NCBI GenBank assembly: GCA_038212175.1
Contig: JBBQUU010000021.1
Span: forward strand, 1,969 to 65,968
Reading direction: 5' to 3'
Source of the DNA: Opitutales bacterium
Lineage (GTDB): Bacteria > Verrucomicrobiota > Verrucomicrobiia > Opitutales > Opitutaceae
Length of the DNA stretch: 64,000 nt
Below the pieces are notes generated by a model. That model was given only the letters and a program-made list of their open reading frames with translations. It did not search any database and was not told the origin of the DNA. Shown here in pieces: positions 3,909 to 39,484 of this stretch. Position 1 is the stretch's first letter. Each line of letters opens with the position of its first letter. The translations under genes and the position numbers were made by a program.

Positions 3909-4871
3909 TCACAGGCGTTTCGCCCAACGGCCGGCGAGCACTCCGCAGATGATCAGTTGCAGCGGATGGTAGATCATGATCGGGAGCAAAATCAGCCCGA
4001 TGCCCGGGTGCGCTCCAAAGATCAGCTGCGCCATGGGCACCCCTGACGCCAGGGTTTTCTTGGATCCGCAAAACACCGCGGCGATGCGGTCCTCCACCGG
4101 AAAGCCGAGCAGGTCACACACGGCGCCCACGATCGCCATCACGACGAAGAACAGAATCGCAGCCCCCGCCACCGTGAGCGCTATCATGCCCCAGCCGTGG
4201 TCGGACCACACGCCTTCCTTCATCGAGTCGCAGAAGGACGTATAGACCAGCACGAGAATCGTTGCGCGATCGATCGTACCGATCCGTTTCCTGTGGCGCC
4301 CGGCGAACGCGCCGAACAACGGCCGGCAGAGCTGGCCCACGACGAGCGGCAGGATAAGCCAGAGGACGAGATCGAGGATCACCGGGCCCAACGCCATGCC
4401 CTGCCCGCCCGATTTCAGCAGCAATCCTATCCACAGCGGCGTGAGGAACACCCCAATCAGGCTCGAAAGCGTTGCGTTGAACACCGCCGCCGGCACGTTG
4501 CCGCGCGCCGCCGCAGTCAGGGCAACCGACGACGAGACCGTCGACGGCAGCACACACAGATAAAATACGCCCAGCCGCAGGTCGTCCGAGAGCCCGGAAC
4601 CGACCGTATTGAGAAAAACCAGGCCGATCAGCGGAAAGAGCAGAAAGGTGGAAAGCTGCACCACCAGATGCAGGCGCCATTGCAACGTGCCCGCCTTCAG
4701 CGCGGCGAACGAGAGCGCCACGCCATGCATGAAGAAAATCAACGCCACGCCCGCTTTCGTCAGGATTTCTGGATACAGCCAGCCGCCCCGCGCCCCAGGC
4801 TCAGGAAAGAGCCAGGCCAGCGCGACGGCCGCCGCCATCCCCAGCAGGAACCAATCGAGTTTCAGTTTCAT
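3909..4871 (-). CDS. Bile acid:sodium symporter (BASS/YfeH-like) family transporter
   Basis: 320 aa, about 10 TM segments. MKLKLDWFLLGMAAAVALAWLFPEPG...ALIFFMHGVALS...VLPSTVSSSVALTAAARGNVPAAVFNATLSSLIGVFLTP is typical of the SBF-like family. Confidence 0.8.
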   Translation of the reverse strand: MKLKLDWFLLGMAAAVALAWLFPEPGARGGWLYPEILTKAGVALIFFMHGVALSFAALKAGTLQWRLHLVVQLSTFLLFPLIGLVFLNTVGSGLSDDLRLGVFYLCVLPSTVSSSVALTAAARGNVPAAVFNATLSSLIGVFLTPLWIGLLLKSGGQGMALGPVILDLVLWLILPLVVGQLCRPLFGAFAGRHRKRIGTIDRATILVLVYTSFCDSMKEGVWSDHGWGMIALTVAGAAILFFVVMAIVGAVCDLLGFPVEDRIAAVFCGSKKTLASGVPMAQLIFGAHPGIGLILLPIMIYHPLQLIICGVLAGRWAKRL

Positions 4872-4884
4872 GCGCGCAATCTTT

Positions 4885-6480
4885 TCACGGTTTGGAAGCC
4901 GGTCGAACGCGACGGGTAAGCAGCGCCATGAGTTCGTGGCGGCCTTCGATCTTCAGCGCCCAAAGTACGCCACCATAGACCGCCACACCCAGGGGAATGA
5001 GGATCGCCAGAGCCCCGGCGTCCGCCCAGCCGCCGCGTCCGGCCCACATCGACCAACTTCTCCACCCCAGCCACACCGCCCCGCCCATCGCCGCCGCCGC
5101 AACCAACACGCGACCGACGCTGGGCCAGATCGCCCCAAACCCGAGGGAGCCGCGTTTGCGGGTGAGGAAATATTGCAGGTGCACCGCCTGCACGACCACC
5201 GCGAGGTTGCTGGCCAGTGCAAGTCCCACGGTGCCGAACCGACGCATCAGCGCGATGCTCAGGGCAACGTTGACGACGAAACTCAGCAAGGCCGCCCACA
5301 CCGGAGTCATCGTGTCCTTCTGCGCATAGTAGGCGCGAAGAACGAGGTTCACGAACGAGAAGAAGGGCAGCCCGAACGCGAACACCGCCACCACCGGGAT
5401 CATCATCTGCGTATCCTCCGGACGAAACGCGCCGCGCTGGAACAGCAGGCGGATCACGGGTTCGGCCAACACCGTCAGCCCAACGGCTGCGGGAATGTTG
5501 ATGATCAAAATGAGACGCATGCCCTGCCGGTACGCCGAGGTGAGATTCTGCCAGTCGCCCTGCGCCGCGTACCGCGAGATCAGCGGAAACACGACGGTCG
5601 ACACCGCCACCGCGAAGACTCCGATGGGCAACTCCATCAGGCGCGTGGCAAGGTTCAGCACGGCCGCCGCCTGATCGTTCACGGACAATCCCATGAGCCG
5701 CGACACCGACATGTTGATCAAATACACGGCCGAGCCAAACACGGTCGGTCCCATCAGTCTCATGATCGCCCTGATCTGCGGACTCAAACGCAGGTCGAAG
5801 GCCGGGCGCCATCCTTCGCGCATGAGCACCCAGGCCGGTACCGCCATTTGCAGAAAGCCGCCCACCAGCACGCCGGAGCAAAGCCAGCGCATCCGGGCAT
5901 CGTCGCCGTCCGCCCATCCGAGGTATGCCGCCCCTCCGAGCATCGAGATCATCGCCACGTTGAGCCAGACGGGCGAAAGGGCCGGCTCGAGGAAGCGATT
6001 CAGCGTTTGCAGCGCCGCGCTGAAAACCGCGGCCAGACACACGAAAATCATGTACGGAAACAAGAACGCCGCGAGTTCCGCCCCCGCCAGCCACCGCGCC
6101 ACGGTCGACGCTTCCGCGCCCCACCCGCGCATCTGCGCCTCAAGAAAATCCGTCCTGCCCAAGACCCACACGGCCACGCCCACGAGCGCGGTGGTGGCCA
6201 CAAGCAGCCAGCTCGCCACCTGGCTCACGAGCACAAAGGCTCCGGCGCGTTGCCTTTGCGTGAGCTCCTCGTTGAGCGTCGGCACGAAGGCCGCCGTGAG
6301 CGCACCCTCGCCCAGCAGGCGCCGAAAGAGGTTGGGCAGCGTGAAAGCCGTCACGAACGCCGATGCCAGCGCGGTCGTGCCAAACACCGCGCTCAGCAAC
6401 ATATCCCGCCCGAGCCCGAGCACGCGCGACACGAGGGTGACGGTCGCGACGACGCTGATGTTCCGAAGGCTCTTGGACAC
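4885..6480 (-). CDS. murJ: Lipid II flippase MurJ
   Basis: 531 aa. The N-terminus VSRVLGLGRDMLLSAVFGTTALASAFVTAFTLPNLFRRLLGEGALTAAFVPTLNEE is characteristic of MurJ/MviN. Confidence 0.9.
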   Translation of the reverse strand: MSKSLRNISVVATVTLVSRVLGLGRDMLLSAVFGTTALASAFVTAFTLPNLFRRLLGEGALTAAFVPTLNEELTQRQRAGAFVLVSQVASWLLVATTALVGVAVWVLGRTDFLEAQMRGWGAEASTVARWLAGAELAAFLFPYMIFVCLAAVFSAALQTLNRFLEPALSPVWLNVAMISMLGGAAYLGWADGDDARMRWLCSGVLVGGFLQMAVPAWVLMREGWRPAFDLRLSPQIRAIMRLMGPTVFGSAVYLINMSVSRLMGLSVNDQAAAVLNLATRLMELPIGVFAVAVSTVVFPLISRYAAQGDWQNLTSAYRQGMRLILIINIPAAVGLTVLAEPVIRLLFQRGAFRPEDTQMMIPVVAVFAFGLPFFSFVNLVLRAYYAQKDTMTPVWAALLSFVVNVALSIALMRRFGTVGLALASNLAVVVQAVHLQYFLTRKRGSLGFGAIWPSVGRVLVAAAAMGGAVWLGWRSWSMWAGRGGWADAGALAILIPLGVAVYGGVLWALKIEGRHELMALLTRRVRPASKP

Positions 6481-8834: not shown

Positions 8835-8849
8835 GTCCAATTAATTTCT

Positions 8850-8945
8850 GTTGTAGCCGCGGGCGCCGACCGCGGTCCGGTGGCGTTGTTGTAGCCGCGG
8901 GCGCCGACCGCGGTCCGTTGCCTATTGTTGTCGCCGCGTGCCCCG
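8850..8945 (+). repeat. Family-A tandem repeat, 2 full + 1 degenerate unit (~38-bp period)
   Basis: ttgtagccgcgggcgccgaccgcggtccg occurs twice, then tgttgtcgccgcgtgccccgcc. Each unit has two CCGCGG arms able to pair around GCGCCGA. Confidence 0.85.
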
Positions 8946-14037: not shown

Positions 14038-14088
14038 CGGTTATTACAGGAGCAGCTCTCCGCGAGCCAAGCCGTCCGCTGGCATTAT

Positions 14089-14285
14089 TGTAGCCGCGGG
14101 CGCCGACCGCGGTCCGTTGGCTGCTGTAGCCGCGGGCGCCGACCGCGGTCCGTTGGCTGTTGTAGCCGCAGGCGCCGACCGCAGTCCGTGCGCAGTTGTA
14201 GCCGCGGGCGCCGACCGCGGTCCGTGGGCAGTTGTAGCTGCGGGCGCTGACCGCGGTCCGTTGCCTGCTGTAGCGGTCCGTGAGC
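14089..14285 (+). repeat. Family-A tandem array, 36-bp period, 5 full + 1 truncated unit
   Basis: tgtagc unit starts at 14089, 14125, 14161, 14197, 14233 and 14269. Unit tgtagccgcgggcgccgaccgcggtccgttggctgc with a few substitutions. There are no unique spacers. Confidence 0.9.
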
Positions 14286-25037: not shown

Positions 25038-25186
25038 TCTCTGCGATCTCTGCGACCTCTTAACAAACAGCCACTGTTTCTTCTGGTCGGAGCCAAAACT
25101 TGTTTTGGGTTGGGCTCCTGTGAAAACGGATTGGGTCCGATGATCGAGACAGGCGTTCCAGCAGGTTTACAGGAGGACGCAGAGAG
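25038..25186. repeat. Family-B repeat pair (reverse copy 25038-25065, forward copy 25166-25186)
   Basis: tctctgcgatctctgcgacctcttaac ... tttacaggaggacgcagagag. Inner segment 25133-25173 resembles the reverse complement of 9026-9068. Confidence 0.6.
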
Positions 25187-25309
25187 TGGCATGCAGGGCT
25201 GACCACCCGGTCAGGTTTACCCGCCTCTGGCGGCGCCCGCGGCTACAGCTTACGGCGGCAACTGACCGCGGCCGCAACGTCCGGGAGCGGGCCGTCGTGC
25301 CGGTAAGAA

Positions 25310-25905
25310 TGTCGGCGGGTCCCCGCGAAGCTCGTCGCCACCCTGGTCGGCAAACCCTTTACCGTCACCGGCTACGCTCTCGTGGTCACGAGGTCGCGGA
25401 TCGAGCAGATGGCGGCACCAACGGCGCCCCTCTCGCCCGTATCGTCCTCGAGGACTACACCTTCACCCTCATTAACAACGTGCCCGGCATCCCCCAAGTG
25501 CAGCTTACGGATCGCCTCAATGCCACTGCTAAAGCCCTCGCCCTCCTCACCCCCGACGCCGCCCACTTCTCCGGCAACCTTGCCGACCGCCTCGTCATCG
25601 TCTCCGACGGCATGCTGAGTTTCTTCGCCCGCACCGCCTGCGAGATCGCCCAGCACGTCCGCATCAACGACGCCACTGGCACCGCCTCCGAAGGCGGTCT
25701 CTTCAACCAAGAAAACGTCCCCGCCGACACCCTCTTCTACGCCGTCCTGCACGCCACCCCGGCCCGCTCCGACCACCATCGCGACAAGACTCGCGCCGCT
25801 CAACACACACCCGAAGCCGCCTTCACCGCCCTCACCACCGTCGTCCACACCATCCAAATCGGCGGCGACGCCACCACCGGTTTGCGGCTACTGCACCGCC
25901 CACCT
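25310..25905 (+). pseudogene. cmr4: Type III-B RAMP protein Cmr4 remnant (N-terminus missing, frameshift near 25420, 3-prime end truncated)
   Basis: RLVIVSDGMLSFFARTACEIAQHVRINDATGTASEGGLFNQENVPADTLFYAVLHATPA and IQIGGDATTG parallel, from memory, P. furiosus Cmr4 [59 protein letters not shown] and LQIGGNETVGKG. An upstream piece in another frame reads TGYALVVTRSRIEQM. Confidence 0.7.
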
Positions 25906-25921
25906 CTCGCCTGCCTAAACC

Positions 25922-25956
25922 TTGACTGCCCACAATATCTAGCTAACGTAGCTAAC
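25922..25956 (+). promoter_or_regulatory. vapBC-1 promoter/operator: TTGACT-N12-TAGCTAAC-G-TAGCTAAC
   Basis: A -35-like TTGACT (25922-25927) and tandem octamers at 25940-25947 and 25949-25956 lie directly before ATG 25958. Confidence 0.4.
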
Positions 25957-25957
25957 T

Positions 25958-26206
25958 ATGATCACCGTCAACATGCACGAGGCCAAAACCCGCCTCTCCG
26001 CCTTGGTCGAAGCTGCCGAACAAGGTGAAATCGTCATCCTCTGCCGCCACGGCCAACCCGTCGTGCGCCTCACCCCCGAACGCGCCTCCGCACCGCTCGA
26101 CCGCACCTCTCTCCCGCCCAACCCGAAACTGCAAGGCACCCACGCCCCCGGCTTCGATCCCGCCGAGCCCCTCAGCGAAGACGAATGGCCCGCCGAGCTC
26201 CAATGA
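25958..26206 (+). CDS. Phd/YefM-type antitoxin (VapB-1)
   Basis: MITVNMHEAKTRLSALVEAAEQGEIVILCRHGQPVVRLTP is a classic Phd/YefM N-terminus. ATGA overlap with the toxin gene. Confidence 0.8.
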   Translation: MITVNMHEAKTRLSALVEAAEQGEIVILCRHGQPVVRLTPERASAPLDRTSLPPNPKLQGTHAPGFDPAEPLSEDEWPAELQ

Positions 26207-26589
26207 ACCCCCTTCTCGATACCTGCGCCCTGCTTGGCCTCGCCCGCCTCGGCAGCCCCCTCCCCCGGCCTGCCGCCCGCGCCATTAAAACCGCATCCGA
26301 GCTCTACGTTTCTCCCATCTCCGCCTGGGAAATCGCGATCAAGCAAGCCGCTGGCAAACTCCACCTGCCCGGCCCCGCTCACGCCTGGTTCACCGAAGCC
26401 TGCCGCTACTACCACCTCACCGTCATTCCCCTCGACGCCGCCGTCCTCTGCGCCGGTGCCGCCCTCCCGCTCCTCCACCGCGACCCCTTCGACCGCGTGC
26501 TCATTGCCCTCGCCCACACCCACCACCTTCCGCTGGTCACCTCCGATAAAATCATCCCCACCTATCCGGGCCTCACCGTGCTTTGGTAA
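26203..26589 (+). CDS. vapC: PIN-domain toxin VapC-1
   Basis: MNPLLDTCALLGLA..., SPISAWEIAIK, HRDPFDRVLIALA, LVTSDK (PIN acidic residues). Confidence 0.85.
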   Translation: MNPLLDTCALLGLARLGSPLPRPAARAIKTASELYVSPISAWEIAIKQAAGKLHLPGPAHAWFTEACRYYHLTVIPLDAAVLCAGAALPLLHRDPFDRVLIALAHTHHLPLVTSDKIIPTYPGLTVLW

Positions 26590-26697
26590 CCCGCCCCACC
26601 CGCCACCATGCAAAACCTCGACCAGCGCAGTACGACGAATGGATCAGCTCGCGCGACGAGCCCGCCCCACCCGCCACCATGCAAAACCTCGACCAGC
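26590..26697 (+). repeat. Two identical 37-bp direct repeats separated by a unique 34-bp segment
   Basis: cccgccccacccgccaccatgcaaaacctcgaccagc at 26590-26626 and 26661-26697. Spacer gcagtacgacgaatggatcagctcgcgcgacgag. Confidence 0.9.
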
Positions 26698-27114
26698 TCC
26701 GCGCCGCCCACGCCGTATCCACCGCCGAGCTTCCCGGCCGCGATCAAGGCCCCAAAGCGCGGGCTTCAAAATTGAGCGACGCACGGAGACCAAGGGCGAC
26801 TTTGCCCAACTCGCGAAGGACATCGGCAACCTTGTAAAAGGCACACGCAAAAAAGAGGGATTTCTCATCATCCAGAAAAAGGGAATCTCCACTCCATCTC
26901 CCTTTGGTGCATCCGAATCCCGCCAGACCAGCGCCGTCTATCTTCGACCTATTCGATCCGCGCCCAACCAGCTCGGGCTTATTGTTTTCGAAGTCCCTCA
27001 ATCGAGGGTATTGGGTATGGAATCGCGAACCCACAAACCAATCGTCGACCAGTCTCCATCACGCCTCATTCTACCCGAACGCCATCGTTATCCCCGCTCA
27101 GCCTCGCACCACCC

Positions 27115-27148
27115 TTGACCCACTCCACAACCTAGCCAACATAGCCAC
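27115..27148 (+). promoter_or_regulatory. vapBC-2 promoter/operator: TTGACC-N12-TAGCCAAC-A-TAGCCAC
   Basis: Same architecture and spacing as 25922-25956. A third AGCCAACATAGCCAC copy lies inside the first codons (27158-27172). Confidence 0.4.
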
Positions 27149-27457
27149 ATGCTTACAGCCAACATAGCCACGGCTAGAAACGAACTCTCCCGTCTGCTCC
27201 GGCATGTCAAGCGCGGCGAGACCGTGCTCATCACCGAGCGCAACCACCCCGTCGCCCGCCTCGAACCCATTCCCGCCTCTACCTCCGATACCCCTGCCGC
27301 CCTCGCTCCGCTCTACGAAGCCGGCCTGCTCACCCCACCGCAAAAATCTTCTTGGGACGCGCAAGCGTTCCTCTCCTCTCTTCCTGCCACCGCCCCCCTC
27401 GCGCCCGGACGCGACCTCGCCTCGGCGGTCGTCGCCGACCGGGAGGAGTCCGCATGA
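27149..27457 (+). CDS. Phd/YefM-type antitoxin (VapB-2)
   Basis: MLTANIATARNELSRLLRHVKRGETVLITERNHPVARLEP. ATGA overlap with the toxin gene. Confidence 0.75.
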   Translation: MLTANIATARNELSRLLRHVKRGETVLITERNHPVARLEPIPASTSDTPAALAPLYEAGLLTPPQKSSWDAQAFLSSLPATAPLAPGRDLASAVVADREESA

Positions 27458-27876
27458 GATTTTGGGACAGCTCCGCTGTCGTCACCCTGCTTCTCGCCGA
27501 GGCCGATACCGAGCTGCGCCGGCGCCAACTCGCCGAAGACCCCTCCCTCGCCGTCTGGTGGGGCACCCTCCCCGAGTGCGAATCCGCTCTCGAACGCCGC
27601 CGCCGCGACCAATCCCTAACCGCCGATCAAGTCCGACTTGCCCGCACCCGCCTCGCCGAACTCTCCGCCCACTGGCACGAAGTCGCGCCCTCCGTACCGC
27701 TTCGCACCCTCGCCGTCCGCCTGCTTCGCACCCACCCTTTGCGCGCCGCTGATTCCCTGCAACTCGCCGCCGCCCTCACTCTCGCCCAAGCCGGACTCCC
27801 TGGTCTCCCCTTCCTCACCGCCGACACTCGCCTCGCCAACGCCGCCGAGATTGAAGGCCTGCCCGGCGGACGATAA
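27454..27876 (+). CDS. vapC: PIN-domain toxin VapC-2
   Basis: Start at ATG 27454 (MRFWDSSAVVTLLL...). AADSLQLAAAL and FLTADTRLANAA motifs. Confidence 0.8.
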   Translation: MRFWDSSAVVTLLLAEADTELRRRQLAEDPSLAVWWGTLPECESALERRRRDQSLTADQVRLARTRLAELSAHWHEVAPSVPLRTLAVRLLRTHPLRAADSLQLAAALTLAQAGLPGLPFLTADTRLANAAEIEGLPGGR

Positions 27877-27943
27877 CCGACGCCGAACTCAAGGCGGCTA
27901 CACAGGACGACCAGACACGCCCTTAACCCTAAACCGTGGCTCG

Positions 27944-28108
27944 ATGCCTTCCCTCCTCGTCTCCCTCGGCACTTCCCCGGCCATCGTGCCCGAGGCCTTT
28001 CTTCTGCCCGATGTGACGTTTGAGGCCGTTCATGTAATCACGACGGAGCGGCCCGACATCGCTCCAATCCATGATTTCTTCGCCGGCAGGTTTCCGAAGG
28101 TGGCCTGA
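27944..28108 (+). pseudogene. Cas_NE0113-family (CARF-like CRISPR-associated) N-terminal fragment, 54 codons
   Basis: MPSLLVSLGTSPAIVPEAFLLPDVTFEAVHVITTE matches the family N-terminus (L..LGtSPqVvTEtl ... v.viTT). It terminates early; full-length members are ~200 aa. Confidence 0.55.
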
Positions 28109-28266
28109 CTCGTCTCGACCTTCTTCGCCTCCAGCGCAACGCCCTCGATGCCGCCTTTGTGAGTCCTCGCCTCAGGCGATTCTTGGGCAATCAACTTTCC
28201 GGCCGGCTGGTCCCTTCAGCGACTCGAATCGCGAATTAGTCTTCAGCCCGCCCCGCTCCCCGCATC

Positions 28267-28312
28267 TTGACACCTGTGCACCACTGCACCATGGTGCTCT
28301 TACACCACTACA
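28267..28312 (+). promoter_or_regulatory. vapBC-3 promoter/operator with perfect palindrome GCACCATGGTGC
   Basis: TTGACA 28267-28272, palindrome 28286-28297, CACCACT(G/A)CA direct repeats at 28279-28288 and 28303-28312, then ATG 28318. Confidence 0.4.
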
Positions 28313-28317
28313 TCATC

Positions 28318-28656
28318 ATGCGCCTCTCCATCACTCTCGACGACGATCTCCACCGCATCGCCTCGACCCGTGCCCGCGCCCGGCGCACGTCCATCTCCAA
28401 GGAAATCAACGCCCTTCTCCGCCAGGCCACGATGCCTTCCCCGCCCCAGTTCGTCGTTCCTGTCCACGCCTCCGTCGATCCCGCCAAACACACACCAGAC
28501 TCAGCCACCGGCCTGCTCATCAGCCACGGACGTCTCCGATTTCCAGTCAGCCCGGGTCGTCCCGGCCTCACCCTCGCAATGCTTCAACAGGCTGAGAACG
28601 ACGAAGACTTCCGTCACATGGCCCCGGGCCTTCCACCCGGCGGGCAAACCCCATGA
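28318..28656 (+). CDS. Ribbon-helix-helix antitoxin (VapB-3)
   Basis: MRLSITLDDDLHRIASTRARARRTSISKEINALLRQA (CopG/RHH pattern). ATGA overlap with the toxin gene. Confidence 0.7.
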   Translation: MRLSITLDDDLHRIASTRARARRTSISKEINALLRQATMPSPPQFVVPVHASVDPAKHTPDSATGLLISHGRLRFPVSPGRPGLTLAMLQQAENDEDFRHMAPGLPPGGQTP

Positions 28657-29063
28657 GCTCAAGCCCCGTCTGGCTCGCCGATGGCAACGTGCTCATCGCC
28701 GTCGCTCTCGCCACTCACCCCCACCACCCGCGTGCAATCCGCTGGTTCGATGCCCTCACAACCCCCTTCGCCACCTGCGCCATCACTGAAGGCACTCTCT
28801 TGCGACTGCACATGCAGTTTGCCGCCGACGCTTCCCCAGCCGCCGCGTGGGCCGCGCTTCAGCGCCTCTGCGCCTTGCCTCACCACGTTTTCTGGGACGA
28901 AGCATTCTCCTATCTCGAAATCGATCCCACCGGTCTGTCCGGCCATCGCCAGGTCACCGACGCCTGGCTGGCCCACCTCGCCCGCCGCCGTGGAGGCCGG
29001 GTAGCCACCTTCGACACCAGCTTTGCCCATAACCACCCCGACGTCGCCACACTGCTCCCCTGA
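28653..29063 (+). CDS. vapC: PIN-domain toxin VapC-3
   Basis: WLADGNVLIAVALATHPHHPRAIRWF...FATCAITEGTLLRL...QVTDAWLAHLARRRGGRVATFD is typical of VapC. Confidence 0.8.
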   Translation: MSSSPVWLADGNVLIAVALATHPHHPRAIRWFDALTTPFATCAITEGTLLRLHMQFAADASPAAAWAALQRLCALPHHVFWDEAFSYLEIDPTGLSGHRQVTDAWLAHLARRRGGRVATFDTSFAHNHPDVATLLP

Positions 29064-29426
29064 CCCCATCGCAACCCTGCCGCCCTTTCTTGCCGCCCTA
29101 CCCTCGAACAATGGCATGCGGAACGCCTCGCCCTGCACAGTAACCTCCAGAATCTGGAAAACCGCTTTCGCGACATGCGTCCCGGTTCCCCGGGCGACCC
29201 ACCGCCGCCTCCCTCTTCACCGACGCCCGAGCCCACCTTCGATGACTCGCGCCGCGAATTCGCCGATCCCGCTGTCGACCCGGTTCGCGAATGCACCGAG
29301 ATCGTCGGCAACAGGGCTGAGGAAAAAGCGGTCGAGCCGTTACACGTTACATTCTCTGGCAAAGCGGTGAATTGCCACGCGCCCTGCCGCCTGGCTTCCC
29401 ATGGCGAGGTGATCCGTGTACAACCC

Positions 29427-30790: not shown

Positions 30791-31248
30791 ATTTAACGCA
30801 GAGGCGCGAAGGCGCAGAGGAGAAGGCGGGTCAGAGTCGATTCACGATGCGGTGAATGCCGTCCTTCACCAAGCGCTCGCCGAAGTTGATCACAAGGCCG
30901 AGTTTGAGGCCTGTCAGGCGCAGGTACCTGAGCATCTGGGCGTCAAAGATTTTATTGTATTCAGTAACGGCCTTGAGATCGACGATCACCAATCCGTTGA
31001 TGCGCAGGTCGAGTCGAAGGGGGGTCGCGAGCAATTTGCCCTTATAGCGAATGGGAACCTGCTGCTGCCGCTCGACCAAGAGTCCGCGGAGAGTGAGTTC
31101 CTCCACCAGCGCTTCTTCATACACGCTTTCCAAGAGCCCAGGGCCGCCCAGTTCGCGATGCACTTCAATGGAGGCGTCCACGATAATTCGGCTAAGGGCG
31201 TTTTCGTCCATGGCTGGCTCGTTGCGGCTTCGCGTCTTTGCGTTAAAT
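30791..31248. mobile_element. Putative mini-cassette: GxxExxY gene bounded by 26-bp imperfect terminal inverted repeats
   Basis: Left atttaacgcagaggcgcgaaggcgca (30791-) versus the reverse complement of the right end, atttaacgcaaagacgcgaagccgca (-31248): 23 of 26 positions match by my alignment. It fills nearly all of the 486-bp cysD-cysN spacer. Confidence 0.4.
30831..31211 (-). CDS. GxxExxY-family protein (PD-(D/E)XK nuclease-fold mini-protein)
   Basis: 126 aa. IVDASIEVHRELGGPGLLESVYEEALVEEL (GxxExxY), RLDLRINGLVIVDLKAV, and the GLVINFG tail. Confidence 0.8.
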   Translation of the reverse strand: MDENALSRIIVDASIEVHRELGGPGLLESVYEEALVEELTLRGLLVERQQQVPIRYKGKLLATPLRLDLRINGLVIVDLKAVTEYNKIFDAQMLRYLRLTGLKLGLVINFGERLVKDGIHRIVNRL

Positions 31249-38692: not shown

Positions 38693-39484
38693 TTAACGAG
38701 TGCTCGACACGCTGCCGGCCTGCTTGCCTTCACGCAAAGCCTTCCATTCATCTTCGGTGACGTTAAGGCGGATTTCCTTCTTGTCGGAATCAAAATTGAT
38801 TTTCGACATCGGAACGCGGATGAGGTCGTTGCCAATACCCATCAGGCCGCCCGTGGACACAATGACGGCAGGTTGTTGCATGCCGTGCATGGAACCCATG
38901 GCCGAGCGTCCATCCGCTGCGAGAGAGCCGGAAGAACGGGCACCTGTCGTGCCGGTCTCTGAATAGTTGGAATCCCGGGAGGTGGATGGCGACGTGTTCG
39001 AGGTTGAACCGGTTGTTCCCCTGGCGGCGGATGCCGTCGTGTTCGAGGTTGAACCGGTTGAGCCCTTGGCGGCGGATGCCGAGGTGTTGGAGGTTGAGCC
39101 CCGGTTGGCGGATGCCGACGTGTTGGAGGTTGAGCCCCCACGCATGTCGGTTTTCCCCATGGACAGCGACGACGAGAGGACCACGTCCACCACCGAGCCG
39201 ACCTTCTTGCCGTCCGAACCATTAACGTCCATGCCGATCAAGGTCTTGGCCGTCAATTGGTTATCGAGCTGATCGCTGGTGATCCGCTGGAGGTGGCCGC
39301 CGCTCGCATCGCTGGCGGAATAGCCGGGCGACGACATCGTGCGGTCATGGGAAGACGGCGTGGATGACGGTTTGGTGGAAGACGAGCCGGCTTGGGCGAA
39401 CGCGAGGCAAGGCAGCGCAAGCGCAACAGCAGGTGTGAGAATCGAACGAACGAGTGTGTGTTTCATAGGAGTTTTAATGTGCAT
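38693..39484 (-). CDS. Secreted PRC-barrel-domain protein with Ser/Thr-rich tandem repeats (alternative start MKHTLV at 39466)
   Basis: Signal peptide ...LALPCLAFAQAG, then LIGMDVNGSDGKKVGSVVDVVL (PRC-like), GSTSNTSASA-type repeats, and C-terminal VIVSTGGLMGIGNDLIRVPMSKINFD. Confidence 0.7.
   Translation of the reverse strand: MHIKTPMKHTLVRSILTPAVALALPCLAFAQAGSSSTKPSSTPSSHDRTMSSPGYSASDASGGHLQRITSDQLDNQLTAKTLIGMDVNGSDGKKVGSVVDVVLSSSLSMGKTDMRGGSTSNTSASANRGSTSNTSASAAKGSTGSTSNTTASAARGTTGSTSNTSPSTSRDSNYSETGTTGARSSGSLAADGRSAMGSMHGMQQPAVIVSTGGLMGIGNDLIRVPMSKINFDSDKKEIRLNVTEDEWKALREGKQAGSVSSTR
38984..39139. repeat. In-frame coding tandem repeat (units 45, 45, 36, 30 bp)
   Basis: ggatgNcgNNgtgttNgaggttgaNcc... 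repeated four times. Encodes the STSNTSASA(A/N)(K/R)GST repeats on the minus strand. Confidence 0.85.

Follow-up and report, generated by a model that had tools for sequence, protein, structure and literature searches.

What becomes of the toxin-antitoxin (TA) pairs lodged in a type III CRISPR-Cas locus when the cas genes around them decay? This question is raised by a 64-kb stretch of an Opitutales bacterium (assembly GCA_038212175.1, contig JBBQUU010000021.1, forward-strand positions 1,969 to 65,968), which we analyzed as one window. Coordinates below are positions in this window, L-numbers denote related loci used for comparison, and all remnants and TA features described lie on the + strand. 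Between 25319 and 29063, the window carries in order a cmr3 stub, the 3' half of cmr4, a first VapBC pair (vapBC-1), a duplicated cmr5 start, a 3' stub of cmr1, a second pair (vapBC-2), a cad1 gene without ~1.56 kb of its middle, and a third pair (vapBC-3). Every cas gene is broken, every TA gene is whole, and short cas stubs remain on both sides of the cassettes. We consider it highly probable that the segment at ~25.3-29.1 kb is the relic of a horizontally acquired type III-B (Cmr) locus with Cad1 and native TA pairs. That addiction is the reason for the survival of the pairs is a claim we hold at about even strength.

The cmr genes are reduced to in-order remnants

Remnants were detected by tblastn of intact-locus proteins (L001 and L002) against the window. 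The leftmost is a cmr3 piece of ~40 codons (25319-25437), which equals residues ~370-408 of the ~470-aa Cmr3. By tblastn, 25313-25464 was matched in two frames with an expectation value (E) of 6e-4, the Cmr3 proteins of L002 and L008 gave E values of 6e-4 to 5e-8, and a 23-aa part of the piece matches the equivalent Cmr3 position in 26 loci. The search found no cmr3 homology upstream of 25319. An earlier model-made interpretation of this DNA, hereafter the sequence-only reading, had listed cmr3 among the absent genes, which the remnant shows to be wrong, and had placed a frameshift near 25420; the frameshift exists, but its site is 25381-25387, inside the cmr3 stub, and the adjoining deletion junction is at ~25437.

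Residues ~125 to the end of Cmr4 follow at 25438-25918, as identified with TIGR02580 and tblastn. Residues 105-232 of the open reading frame (ORF) at 25186-26028 match TIGR02580 positions 157-278 of 283 (E 9e-18), and intact Cmr4 proteins match 25435-25884 by tblastn (E 3e-34 and 2e-41), in agreement with the Cmr4 C-terminal half that had been recognized here. The N-terminal ~125 residues are deleted, leaving no full-length Cmr4; a Cmr4 protein search returned 106 homologues, mostly of 265-280 aa. The end of cmr4 had been thought to be cut by the vapBC-1 promoter. Instead, intact relatives share the same arrangement of cmr4 stop and TTGAC, and the damage is one extra base at ~25881-25885, by which the last 12 codons are shifted and the stop is lost (the would-be TAA is at 25916-25918). 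Within cmr4 we also observed that 197 bp of L014 (669-865) are 94% identical to window 25546-25742, though the L014 locus shows 58% protein identity overall; this stretch suggests mosaic recombination among cmr4 alleles.

The cmr5 remnant comprises about the first 26 codons (26679-26756), was found by tblastn, and has DNA 86% identical to L003 667-744. Its first part, 26679-26726, equals residues 1-16 of L001 Cmr5 at 75% identity (tblastn E 1e-3), which confirms the Cmr5-like start reported after vapBC-1, and the DNA is 85-95% identical to the cmr5 starts of many loci. Out of frame with this stub, the C-terminal ~100 codons of cmr1 occupy 26762-27118, with tblastn homology up to 27067: residues 183-276 of the L001 protein RAMP286 match 26762-27067 (E 4e-21). 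By its position, this stub might be taken for cmr6, an assignment we rejected because NCBIfam names the last RAMP of this clade Cmr1; RAMP286 and its L163 homologue match TIGR01894 (Cmr1), and the preceding RAMP of 440-450 aa is Cmr6 (TIGR01898).

Across the whole window, tblastn found no cas10, cmr6, cas1, or cas2, in keeping with that part of the earlier list of absent genes, and the best tblastn match of an 882-aa Cmr2 query had an E of 1.5. No CRISPR array was found in the 64-kb window. With Cas10/Cmr2 and cmr6 absent, and cmr3, cmr4, cmr5, and cmr1 present as remnants only, this is not a functional type III-B locus.

The accessory gene is a cad1 that lost its middle

Cad1, or CAAD, is a CARF-adenosine deaminase effector of type III systems (PDB 9C67, 9EBT, 8Z3K; PMC11645235, PMC12669630). 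The 54 codons at 27944-28108, previously described as a Cas_NE0113-like N-terminus, match residues 6-54 of PDB 8z3p (E 3e-14; 8z3p and 8z3k are CARF-adenosine deaminase structures) and share 66% identity with the beginning of a Cad1-type gene of 609 aa in L011 (E 3e-20), with 27944-28105 matched in both cases. In this L011 gene (6014-7843), the CARF region matches PF09623 (Cas_NE0113) and the deaminase region PF00962 (E 3e-31), and the protein matches solved Cad1/CAAD structures end to end (8z3p, E 1e-252; also 9ebt and 9c67). The NE0113 label therefore stands by way of the L011 CARF region, and the fragment is, by sequence, the N-terminus of Cad1. Since neither the 54-aa fragment nor the Cmr5-start fragment alone has a Pfam or NCBIfam match, the homology of both was established through related loci and, for the former, the PDB.

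In another frame, 28105-28239 holds the last ~44 codons of cad1, with DNA 77% identical to L011 7730-7801 and a match to residues 592-623 of PDB 8z3k and 591-622 of 8z3p (E 0.03). Since the 54-aa and 44-codon pieces align to the extreme termini of Cad1, they represent one cad1 gene that lost ~1.56 kb from its middle; the TGA closing the 54-codon piece arose at the deletion junction. About 520 codons are gone, among them the entire deaminase domain and the larger part of the CARF domain, and activity of the remnant is impossible. In the cmr1-cad1 gap of the intact L011 locus (4009-5998), we observed a 23S rRNA-intervening-sequence-type four-helix protein, a ribbon-helix-helix (RHH)/PIN pair, and a YbjN-like gene, which are further non-cas passengers of these loci.

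Together, the cmr3, cmr4, cmr5, cmr1, and cad1 pieces follow the gene order of L163-L165 and L011; their E values range from 1e-3 to 2e-41. The relic type III-B locus proposed in the sequence-only reading is thus borne out, and is extended by the cmr3, cmr1, and cad1 3' remnants.

Three VapBC pairs remain full length

All six TA genes between these stubs are full length, with family-typical lengths and no frameshift, and their ratios of nonsynonymous to synonymous substitution rates (dN/dS) against the nearest homologues are 0.16-0.43. The three toxins match PF01850, and VapB1 and VapB2 match the Phd/YefM family above its cut-off, as type II VapBC systems would. Each pair has an ATGA overlap (26203-26206, 27454-27457, and 28653-28656), so that the three overlapping antitoxin-PIN pairs announced earlier hold up by profile matches and by direct reading.

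In vapBC-1, a putative promoter/operator (25922-25957) contains TTGACT at 25922-25927 and two TAGCTAAC repeats at 25940-25956, directly 5' of the vapB1 ATG; the TTGAC and both repeats are kept in L006, L178, L179, L163, and L165. The Phd/YefM-family antitoxin VapB1 (82 aa; 25958-26206; PF02604, E 5e-9) is 90% identical to its L006 homologue without a gap (dN/dS 0.21). The PIN-domain toxin VapC1 (128 aa; 26203-26589; PF01850, E 7e-15) is 91% identical to that of L006 (dN/dS 0.16) and retains D6, E43, D97, and D115, each of which is present in at least 99% of 120 homologues.

The putative vapBC-2 promoter/operator (27115-27171) has TTGAC at 27115-27119 and two perfect 15-nt AGCCAACATAGCCAC repeats (27134-27148 and 27157-27171), which flank the vapB2 ATG, and DNA homology of this region to L163 and L165 begins at 27112. 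VapB2 (Phd/YefM family, 102 aa; 27149-27457; PF02604, E 7e-8) has homologues in L163, L165, and L077 (dN/dS 0.39). VapC2 (PIN domain, 140 aa; 27454-27876) matches PF01850 positions 3-119 of 120 (E 6e-5) and is 69% identical to the 140-aa homologues of L163 and L165 (dN/dS 0.43); D5, E42/E44, D100, and D124 are present by eye in the translation. Overall, vapBC-2 shows 61-70% identity to the second pair of L163 and L165.

The third pair differs in its antitoxin. VapB3 (112 aa; 28318-28656) is of RHH type, with a weak FitA-like RHH match (E 0.012), and is 61% identical to the 115-aa partner of the VapC of L176, a locus in a related metagenome-assembled genome (MAG) (dN/dS 0.23). VapC3 (136 aa; 28653-29063) is a VapC-family PIN toxin that matches TIGR00028 positions 4-139 of 143 above the cut-off (E 8e-24), keeps D10, D103, and D121, and is 76% identical to its L176 homologue. 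Upstream, a putative promoter/operator (28267-28317) holds TTGAC at 28267-28271 and the palindrome GCACCATGGTGC at 28286-28297; homology to L176 begins exactly at 28266 and takes in both motifs.

Each pair had been credited with its own TTGAC-type promoter. The TTGAC motifs are present and conserved in relatives, while a scan for sigma-70 consensus promoters and terminators found no sites. We infer promoter/operator function, TA autoregulation, and toxin activity from these conserved motifs and domains.

The layout also allows the vapBC cassettes to have been wired into the III-B operon, such that TA autoregulation could drive the expression of cmr5-cmr6-cmr1 and Cad1. The vapBC-1 promoter/operator starts at the cmr4 stop, vapC1 ends 14-20 bp before cmr5, and vapBC-2 lies directly upstream of cad1; under stress or infection, degradation of the antitoxin would then derepress the downstream cas genes. 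We regard this as a speculative reading with little chance of being right. If true, TA sensing would be functionally coupled to type III immunity, and the window would be what remains once the regulated genes are gone.

The first two pairs occupy native positions in intact loci

Did successive insertions of TA cassettes break a working cmr operon, as the sequence-only reading had offered as one of its two scenarios? To place the cassettes, we used a metagenome scan anchored on Cmr4 (80 loci) and a search led by VapC1. Insertion did occur at some point, since the vapBC-1 cassette is polymorphic among loci: a cassette of ~0.67 kb is present in 6 of the 76 loci that cover the cmr4-cmr5 junction, and the others have a gap of 3-93 bp. 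The closest Cmr4 relatives (L003-L005 and L007-L010) are without it, with a cmr4-cmr5 spacing of only 22-30 bp.

On the other hand, the same cassette lies between full-length cmr4 and cmr5 in L006 (90/91% identity), L029/30, L043/44, L065/66, L163-L165, and L178. The VapC1-led search, at 83% identity, recovered contigs with whole genes in the order cas10-cmr3-cmr4-Phd-PIN-cmr5-cmr6-cmr1-Phd-PIN. The whole cas10-to-cmr1 order with both pairs is found in L163, L164, L165, L178, and a 12.4-kb MAG contig, where the second cassette follows full-length cmr1, and the proteins of these intact counterparts are 82-92% (VapC1) and 69% (VapC2) identical to those of the window. The cassette borders in the window match the intact loci base for base, including the TTGAC at the cmr4 stop, and the junctions that destroyed the cas genes lie inside those genes, away from the borders. 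Since homologues sit at these sites in intact loci, the intergenic positions of vapBC-1 and vapBC-2 are native to the loci of this clade. Serial insertion as the cause of destruction is already contradicted for these two pairs, and we give it very little credence.

Other arrangements of the cassette were also found. In L037, a vapBC-1 homologue sits right after cmr4, there is no cmr5, and the cmr1 start comes next; in L059 and L082, the homologue is just upstream of cmr4; L031 has a partial VapC at its contig start; and in L036 the homologue adjoins an NE0113 gene. In an intact locus, a pair whose VapC1 homologue has 62% identity lies between Card1 and NE0113, and another pair, at 56% identity, has no cas neighbors.

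The deletions broke the cas genes and missed the TA pairs

L164 and L011 served as the references for sizing the deletions and placing their junctions. A left truncation removed everything 5' of Cmr3 residue ~370, that is, cas10 and most of cmr3. Relative to L164, ~0.88 kb was lost between cmr3 and Cmr4 residue ~125 (junction ~25437), and ~2.44 kb was lost from cmr5 codon ~26 to cmr1 codon ~183 (junction 26757-26762), so that nothing further of cmr5 is left, cmr6 is absent altogether, and cmr1 has lost its 5' two-thirds. Relative to L011, ~1.56 kb was lost inside cad1 (junction ~28105). The left truncation, the three internal deletions, and the two frameshifts all miss the TA pairs, and no gene-destroying junction lies at a TA boundary.

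Next to vapC1 is a rearrangement scar (26590-26697), in which two perfect 37-nt copies of the vapC1/cmr5 junction (26590-26626 and 26661-26697), each with the cmr5 ATG, are separated by 34 nt of filler; the junction is single-copy in relatives. Such features bear on the idea that a normal cmr locus was collapsed or chimerized during assembly, given that the contig is probably metagenome-assembled, that the closest relatives are all MAGs, and that related populations hold intact and decayed variants. Assembly collapse does not produce four separate junctions in unique sequence together with a perfect, filler-separated duplication of 37 nt, an inserted single base, and a frameshift, and we find an artefact scarcely believable.

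Over 25546-26624, the window and L006 share 87% DNA identity. In this comparison, the 659 bp of vapBC-1 are free of gaps, while the adjacent ~170 bp of the cmr4 tail have about a dozen indels. The conserved cmr4 core has a dN/dS of 0.22, and therefore the decay appears, from this ratio, to be recent relative to the split from L006.

Decay of III-B loci was also observed elsewhere. Two contigs, P0012 (ERZ1426755, 9355 bp) and cc6D57pe, both start with a minus-strand pectinesterase gene; one carries a full cas10-to-cmr1 locus with two TA pairs, and the other has Cmr4 as a frameshifted piece of 99 aa, along with Cmr5, one TA pair, and Cad1 in three ORFs. They may be intact and decaying alleles of one site in related populations. 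L172-L174 (8001-10938; 24 contigs) hold a decayed III-B locus with a 129-aa Cmr4 C-terminal ORF right after GmrSD genes and without cas10 or cmr3, and L175 (5075-10040) has a shortened Cmr2 and a 103-aa Cmr4. Judging from such contigs, type III-B relics seem common.

Addiction as a proposed reason for the survival of the pairs

The reading we favor is that the ancestral locus was a type III-B system with Cad1 as its ancillary effector and, like other such loci of this verrucomicrobial clade, with type II VapBC pairs in its intergenic gaps: a Phd/PIN pair at cmr4-cmr5, a second Phd/PIN pair after cmr1, and a third pair, RHH/PIN here, beside the accessory genes. The left truncation, the deletions of ~0.88, ~2.44, and ~1.56 kb, and the two small frameshifts inactivated all cas genes, leaving a locus unable to make the Cmr complex, cyclic oligoadenylate, or Cad1. 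Each of the three TA operons is intact, as are the TTGAC and repeat motifs upstream of it, and all appear to be under purifying selection. Loss of an antitoxin gene would free a stable PIN RNase toxin, so that deletions reaching a TA pair would be counter-selected (post-segregational killing, or addiction), and deletions within the cas DNA between the pairs would be tolerated. Because only deletions into the pairs would be selected against, the pairs would shield only themselves and short flanking stubs. The pattern of broken cas genes and whole TA genes is what selection against antitoxin loss would produce. The earlier suggestion that TA modules outlived a type III locus thus fits the data; that they had once stabilized it, we can only infer.

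Could the pairs have been missed by luck, with ordinary deletion bias and no selection? When four deletions were placed at random on a composite map of 12.25 kb, all TA pairs were missed in ~5% of trials, and in ~10% with the internal deletions alone, so the simulated probability of 0.05-0.10 is not negligible. Neutral loss is also favored by the apparent recency of the decay (cmr4 core dN/dS 0.22) and by the existence of decayed III-B loci without any TA pair, in the P0022 and P0105 contexts. These two short-Cmr4-ORF contexts are independent decayed cmr loci, and having no TA pairs they add no support. Against luck, the six TA genes are full length with catalytic residues kept while five of the five neighboring cas genes are broken, vapBC-1 is free of indels over 659 bp beside the dozen or so in ~170 bp of cmr4, and the same pattern arose independently in L077. 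There (4955-5900), the gene after an intact vapBC-2 homologue consists of the first 23 codons of a cad1 and, joined to them, the C-terminal fragment of a csx3; from its sequence, this is an independent truncation of accessory genes beside a surviving TA pair. We judge chance alone to be distinctly unlikely.

Alternatively, the pairs may have been kept not for addiction but for a usefulness of their own, such as phage defense by abortive infection, a role in stress dormancy, or the action of VapC-like enzymes as off-switches. TA systems have been reported as defense elements, the VapBC-like module of type III-D2 loci was proposed to act on signaling molecules and not as a toxin (PMC13294483), and a dN/dS below 1 is compatible with any function. 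Yet the three VapCs have predicted canonical PIN active sites and the layouts of canonical autoregulated operons, and since cas10 has been lost, an off-switch would have neither cyclic oligoadenylate nor SAM-AMP to act on. This alternative is unlikely in our view, although benefit and addiction are inseparable with these data.

Several points weigh against the relic-and-addiction reading as a whole. The VapC1 family is widespread, and at ~56% identity its members also turn up where there are no cas genes nearby. None of the references is colinear with the entire window, and since the cmr1 stub resembles L017, L001, and L021 more than L164, the ancestral map is a composite. The counterpart of vapBC-3 inside cmr loci is only distant (31%). 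In L176, the 76%-identity VapC3 homologue, with its antitoxin and promoter motifs, adjoins cysN-PDDEXK-cysD and has foreign composition; since it adjoins cysN there, vapBC-3 may be an older resident of the site, outside the cmr island. The L176 contig ends 400 bp upstream of this homologue, and those 400 bp gave no reliable cas homology, so vapBC-3 may have been at the site before the cmr island, or L176 may be a relic in which reduction has gone even further. The deletion simulation is post hoc and, at P 0.05-0.1, suggestive only. Values of dN/dS average over entire lineages and are blind to selection since the decay, and the cmr4 core value of 0.22 would speak for recent decay and not for special protection of the TA pairs. 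Finally, the consensus promoter scan of the TA upstream regions found nothing.

We also observed partial loss of a TA pair. In the otherwise intact cmr locus of L178 (3660-4358), the RHH antitoxin after cmr1 is whole and the PIN toxin is a 58-aa C-terminal piece; when the toxin goes first, a TA pair can be lost safely, the reverse of the forbidden order.

The island is foreign in composition

On the + strand, GC skew at 25.25-29.25 kb is -0.23 to -0.40 (500-nt windows), and in the rest of the 64-kb window the absolute skew is at most 0.16 (1-kb windows). Third codon positions of island genes have C at 0.39-0.76 and G at 0.08-0.19, giving a GC skew at third positions (GC3 skew) of -0.62, compared to -0.05 in host genes (n=11); the closest foreign relatives of the island are skewed in the same direction (-0.26 to -0.38). 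With this foreign composition, the segment looks horizontally acquired. We observed the same strong excess of C-ending over G-ending codons (GC3 skew ~-0.6) across cmr/TA cassettes in window 25250-29250, L003-L010, L163-L165, L178, and L176 1-1200; it holds in several host contexts, where the flanking host genes are unbiased.

The nearest matches of the neighboring CysN are from Opitutaceae/Opitutales MAGs, at no more than 88% identity. In these species-representative MAGs, the cysD side is syntenic and the downstream side of cysN is not: the closest one (88% CysN identity) stops at cysN, and other Opitutaceae MAGs have unrelated genes there. A search of 29064-29426 for further relic sequence found nothing credible. 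Between cysN and cysD lies a 126-aa PDDEXK_3-family gene (30831-31211, - strand), which is in the same place in L176.

Elsewhere in the window, head-to-tail arrays of a 36-38-nt unit, TTGTAGCCGCGGGCGCCGACCGCGGTCCGTTGGCTG, with an internal palindrome occur at 14088-14274 (5.2 copies) and 8849-8945 (2.5 copies). They look like REP-type elements by their sequence; CRISPR arrays were ruled out, as there are no spacers. At 38984-39138, units of 45 and 36 nt (GGATGCCGACGTGTT...) are repeated in tandem, in 2.3-3.1 copies, and may be a coding repeat. An Rfam scan of the window gave no match.

Self-contained TA pairs may guard themselves and not their cas neighbors

The nearest known systems are verrucomicrobial III-B loci (L163-L165, L178, L006, and a MAG contig with RL077_4546/4547), which share with the window the gene order, two TA cassettes in matching intergenic gaps, and the C-rich coding strand. 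They differ in having full-length cas10, cmr3-cmr6, and cmr1, where the window has stubs of cmr3, cmr4, cmr5, and cmr1 and neither cas10 nor cmr6. Likewise, our cad1 pieces align to the termini of the known Cad1/CAAD effectors, whose deaminase domain is lost in the window.

In Sulfolobales such as Acidianus hospitalis W1, vapBC pairs are interspersed in cmr/cas cassettes, of which some are partly defective, and the authors of work on Acidianus and Sulfolobus proposed that they help to keep the cassettes on the chromosome (PMC3119797, PMC4390879). The likeness lies in PIN-toxin TA pairs inside or beside type III interference cassettes. Those hosts are archaeal and their antitoxins are of the AbrB, CopG, and DUF217 types, whereas the window has a bacterial host with Phd/YefM and RHH antitoxins, and its decay has gone much further, with all cas genes dead and all TA pairs alive. 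Type III-D2 loci carry a bacterial VapBC-like module together with the effector CorA and SAM-AMP, and the module was reported to be non-toxic in E. coli (PMC13294483); the window similarly has VapBC-like pairs in a bacterial type III locus, with a different subtype and effector. Both vapBC pairs in type III cassettes and the idea of maintenance are thus already published, and the window is a new bacterial example.

CreTA, a CRISPR-regulated RNA toxin-antitoxin that safeguards Cascade and whose CRISPR-repeat-like antitoxin RNA needs Cascade (PMC10097628, PMC9458426), is likewise an addiction module physically linked to cas genes. Unlike the VapBC pairs of the window, which are self-contained protein TA systems by homology, CreTA addicts the cell to the Cas effector itself. 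Because the VapBC pairs are self-contained, the cas genes could be lost without release of toxin, which matches the pattern in the window.

Altogether, the intact loci of relatives, with both cassettes embedded, and the window, with only stubs around them, form a natural before-and-after pair. The window supports what was suggested for Sulfolobales, namely a resistance to loss of TA pairs within cas cassettes, and it marks the limit of that protection: self-contained protein TA pairs guard themselves and not their cas neighbors, unlike CreTA-type modules. Recurrent vapBC insertion at cmr4-cmr5 in bacterial III-B loci and the presence of Cad1 in this clade are documented here, and current understanding is unchanged. 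The relic is a tidy but unsurprising case of addiction modules outlasting neighboring genes.

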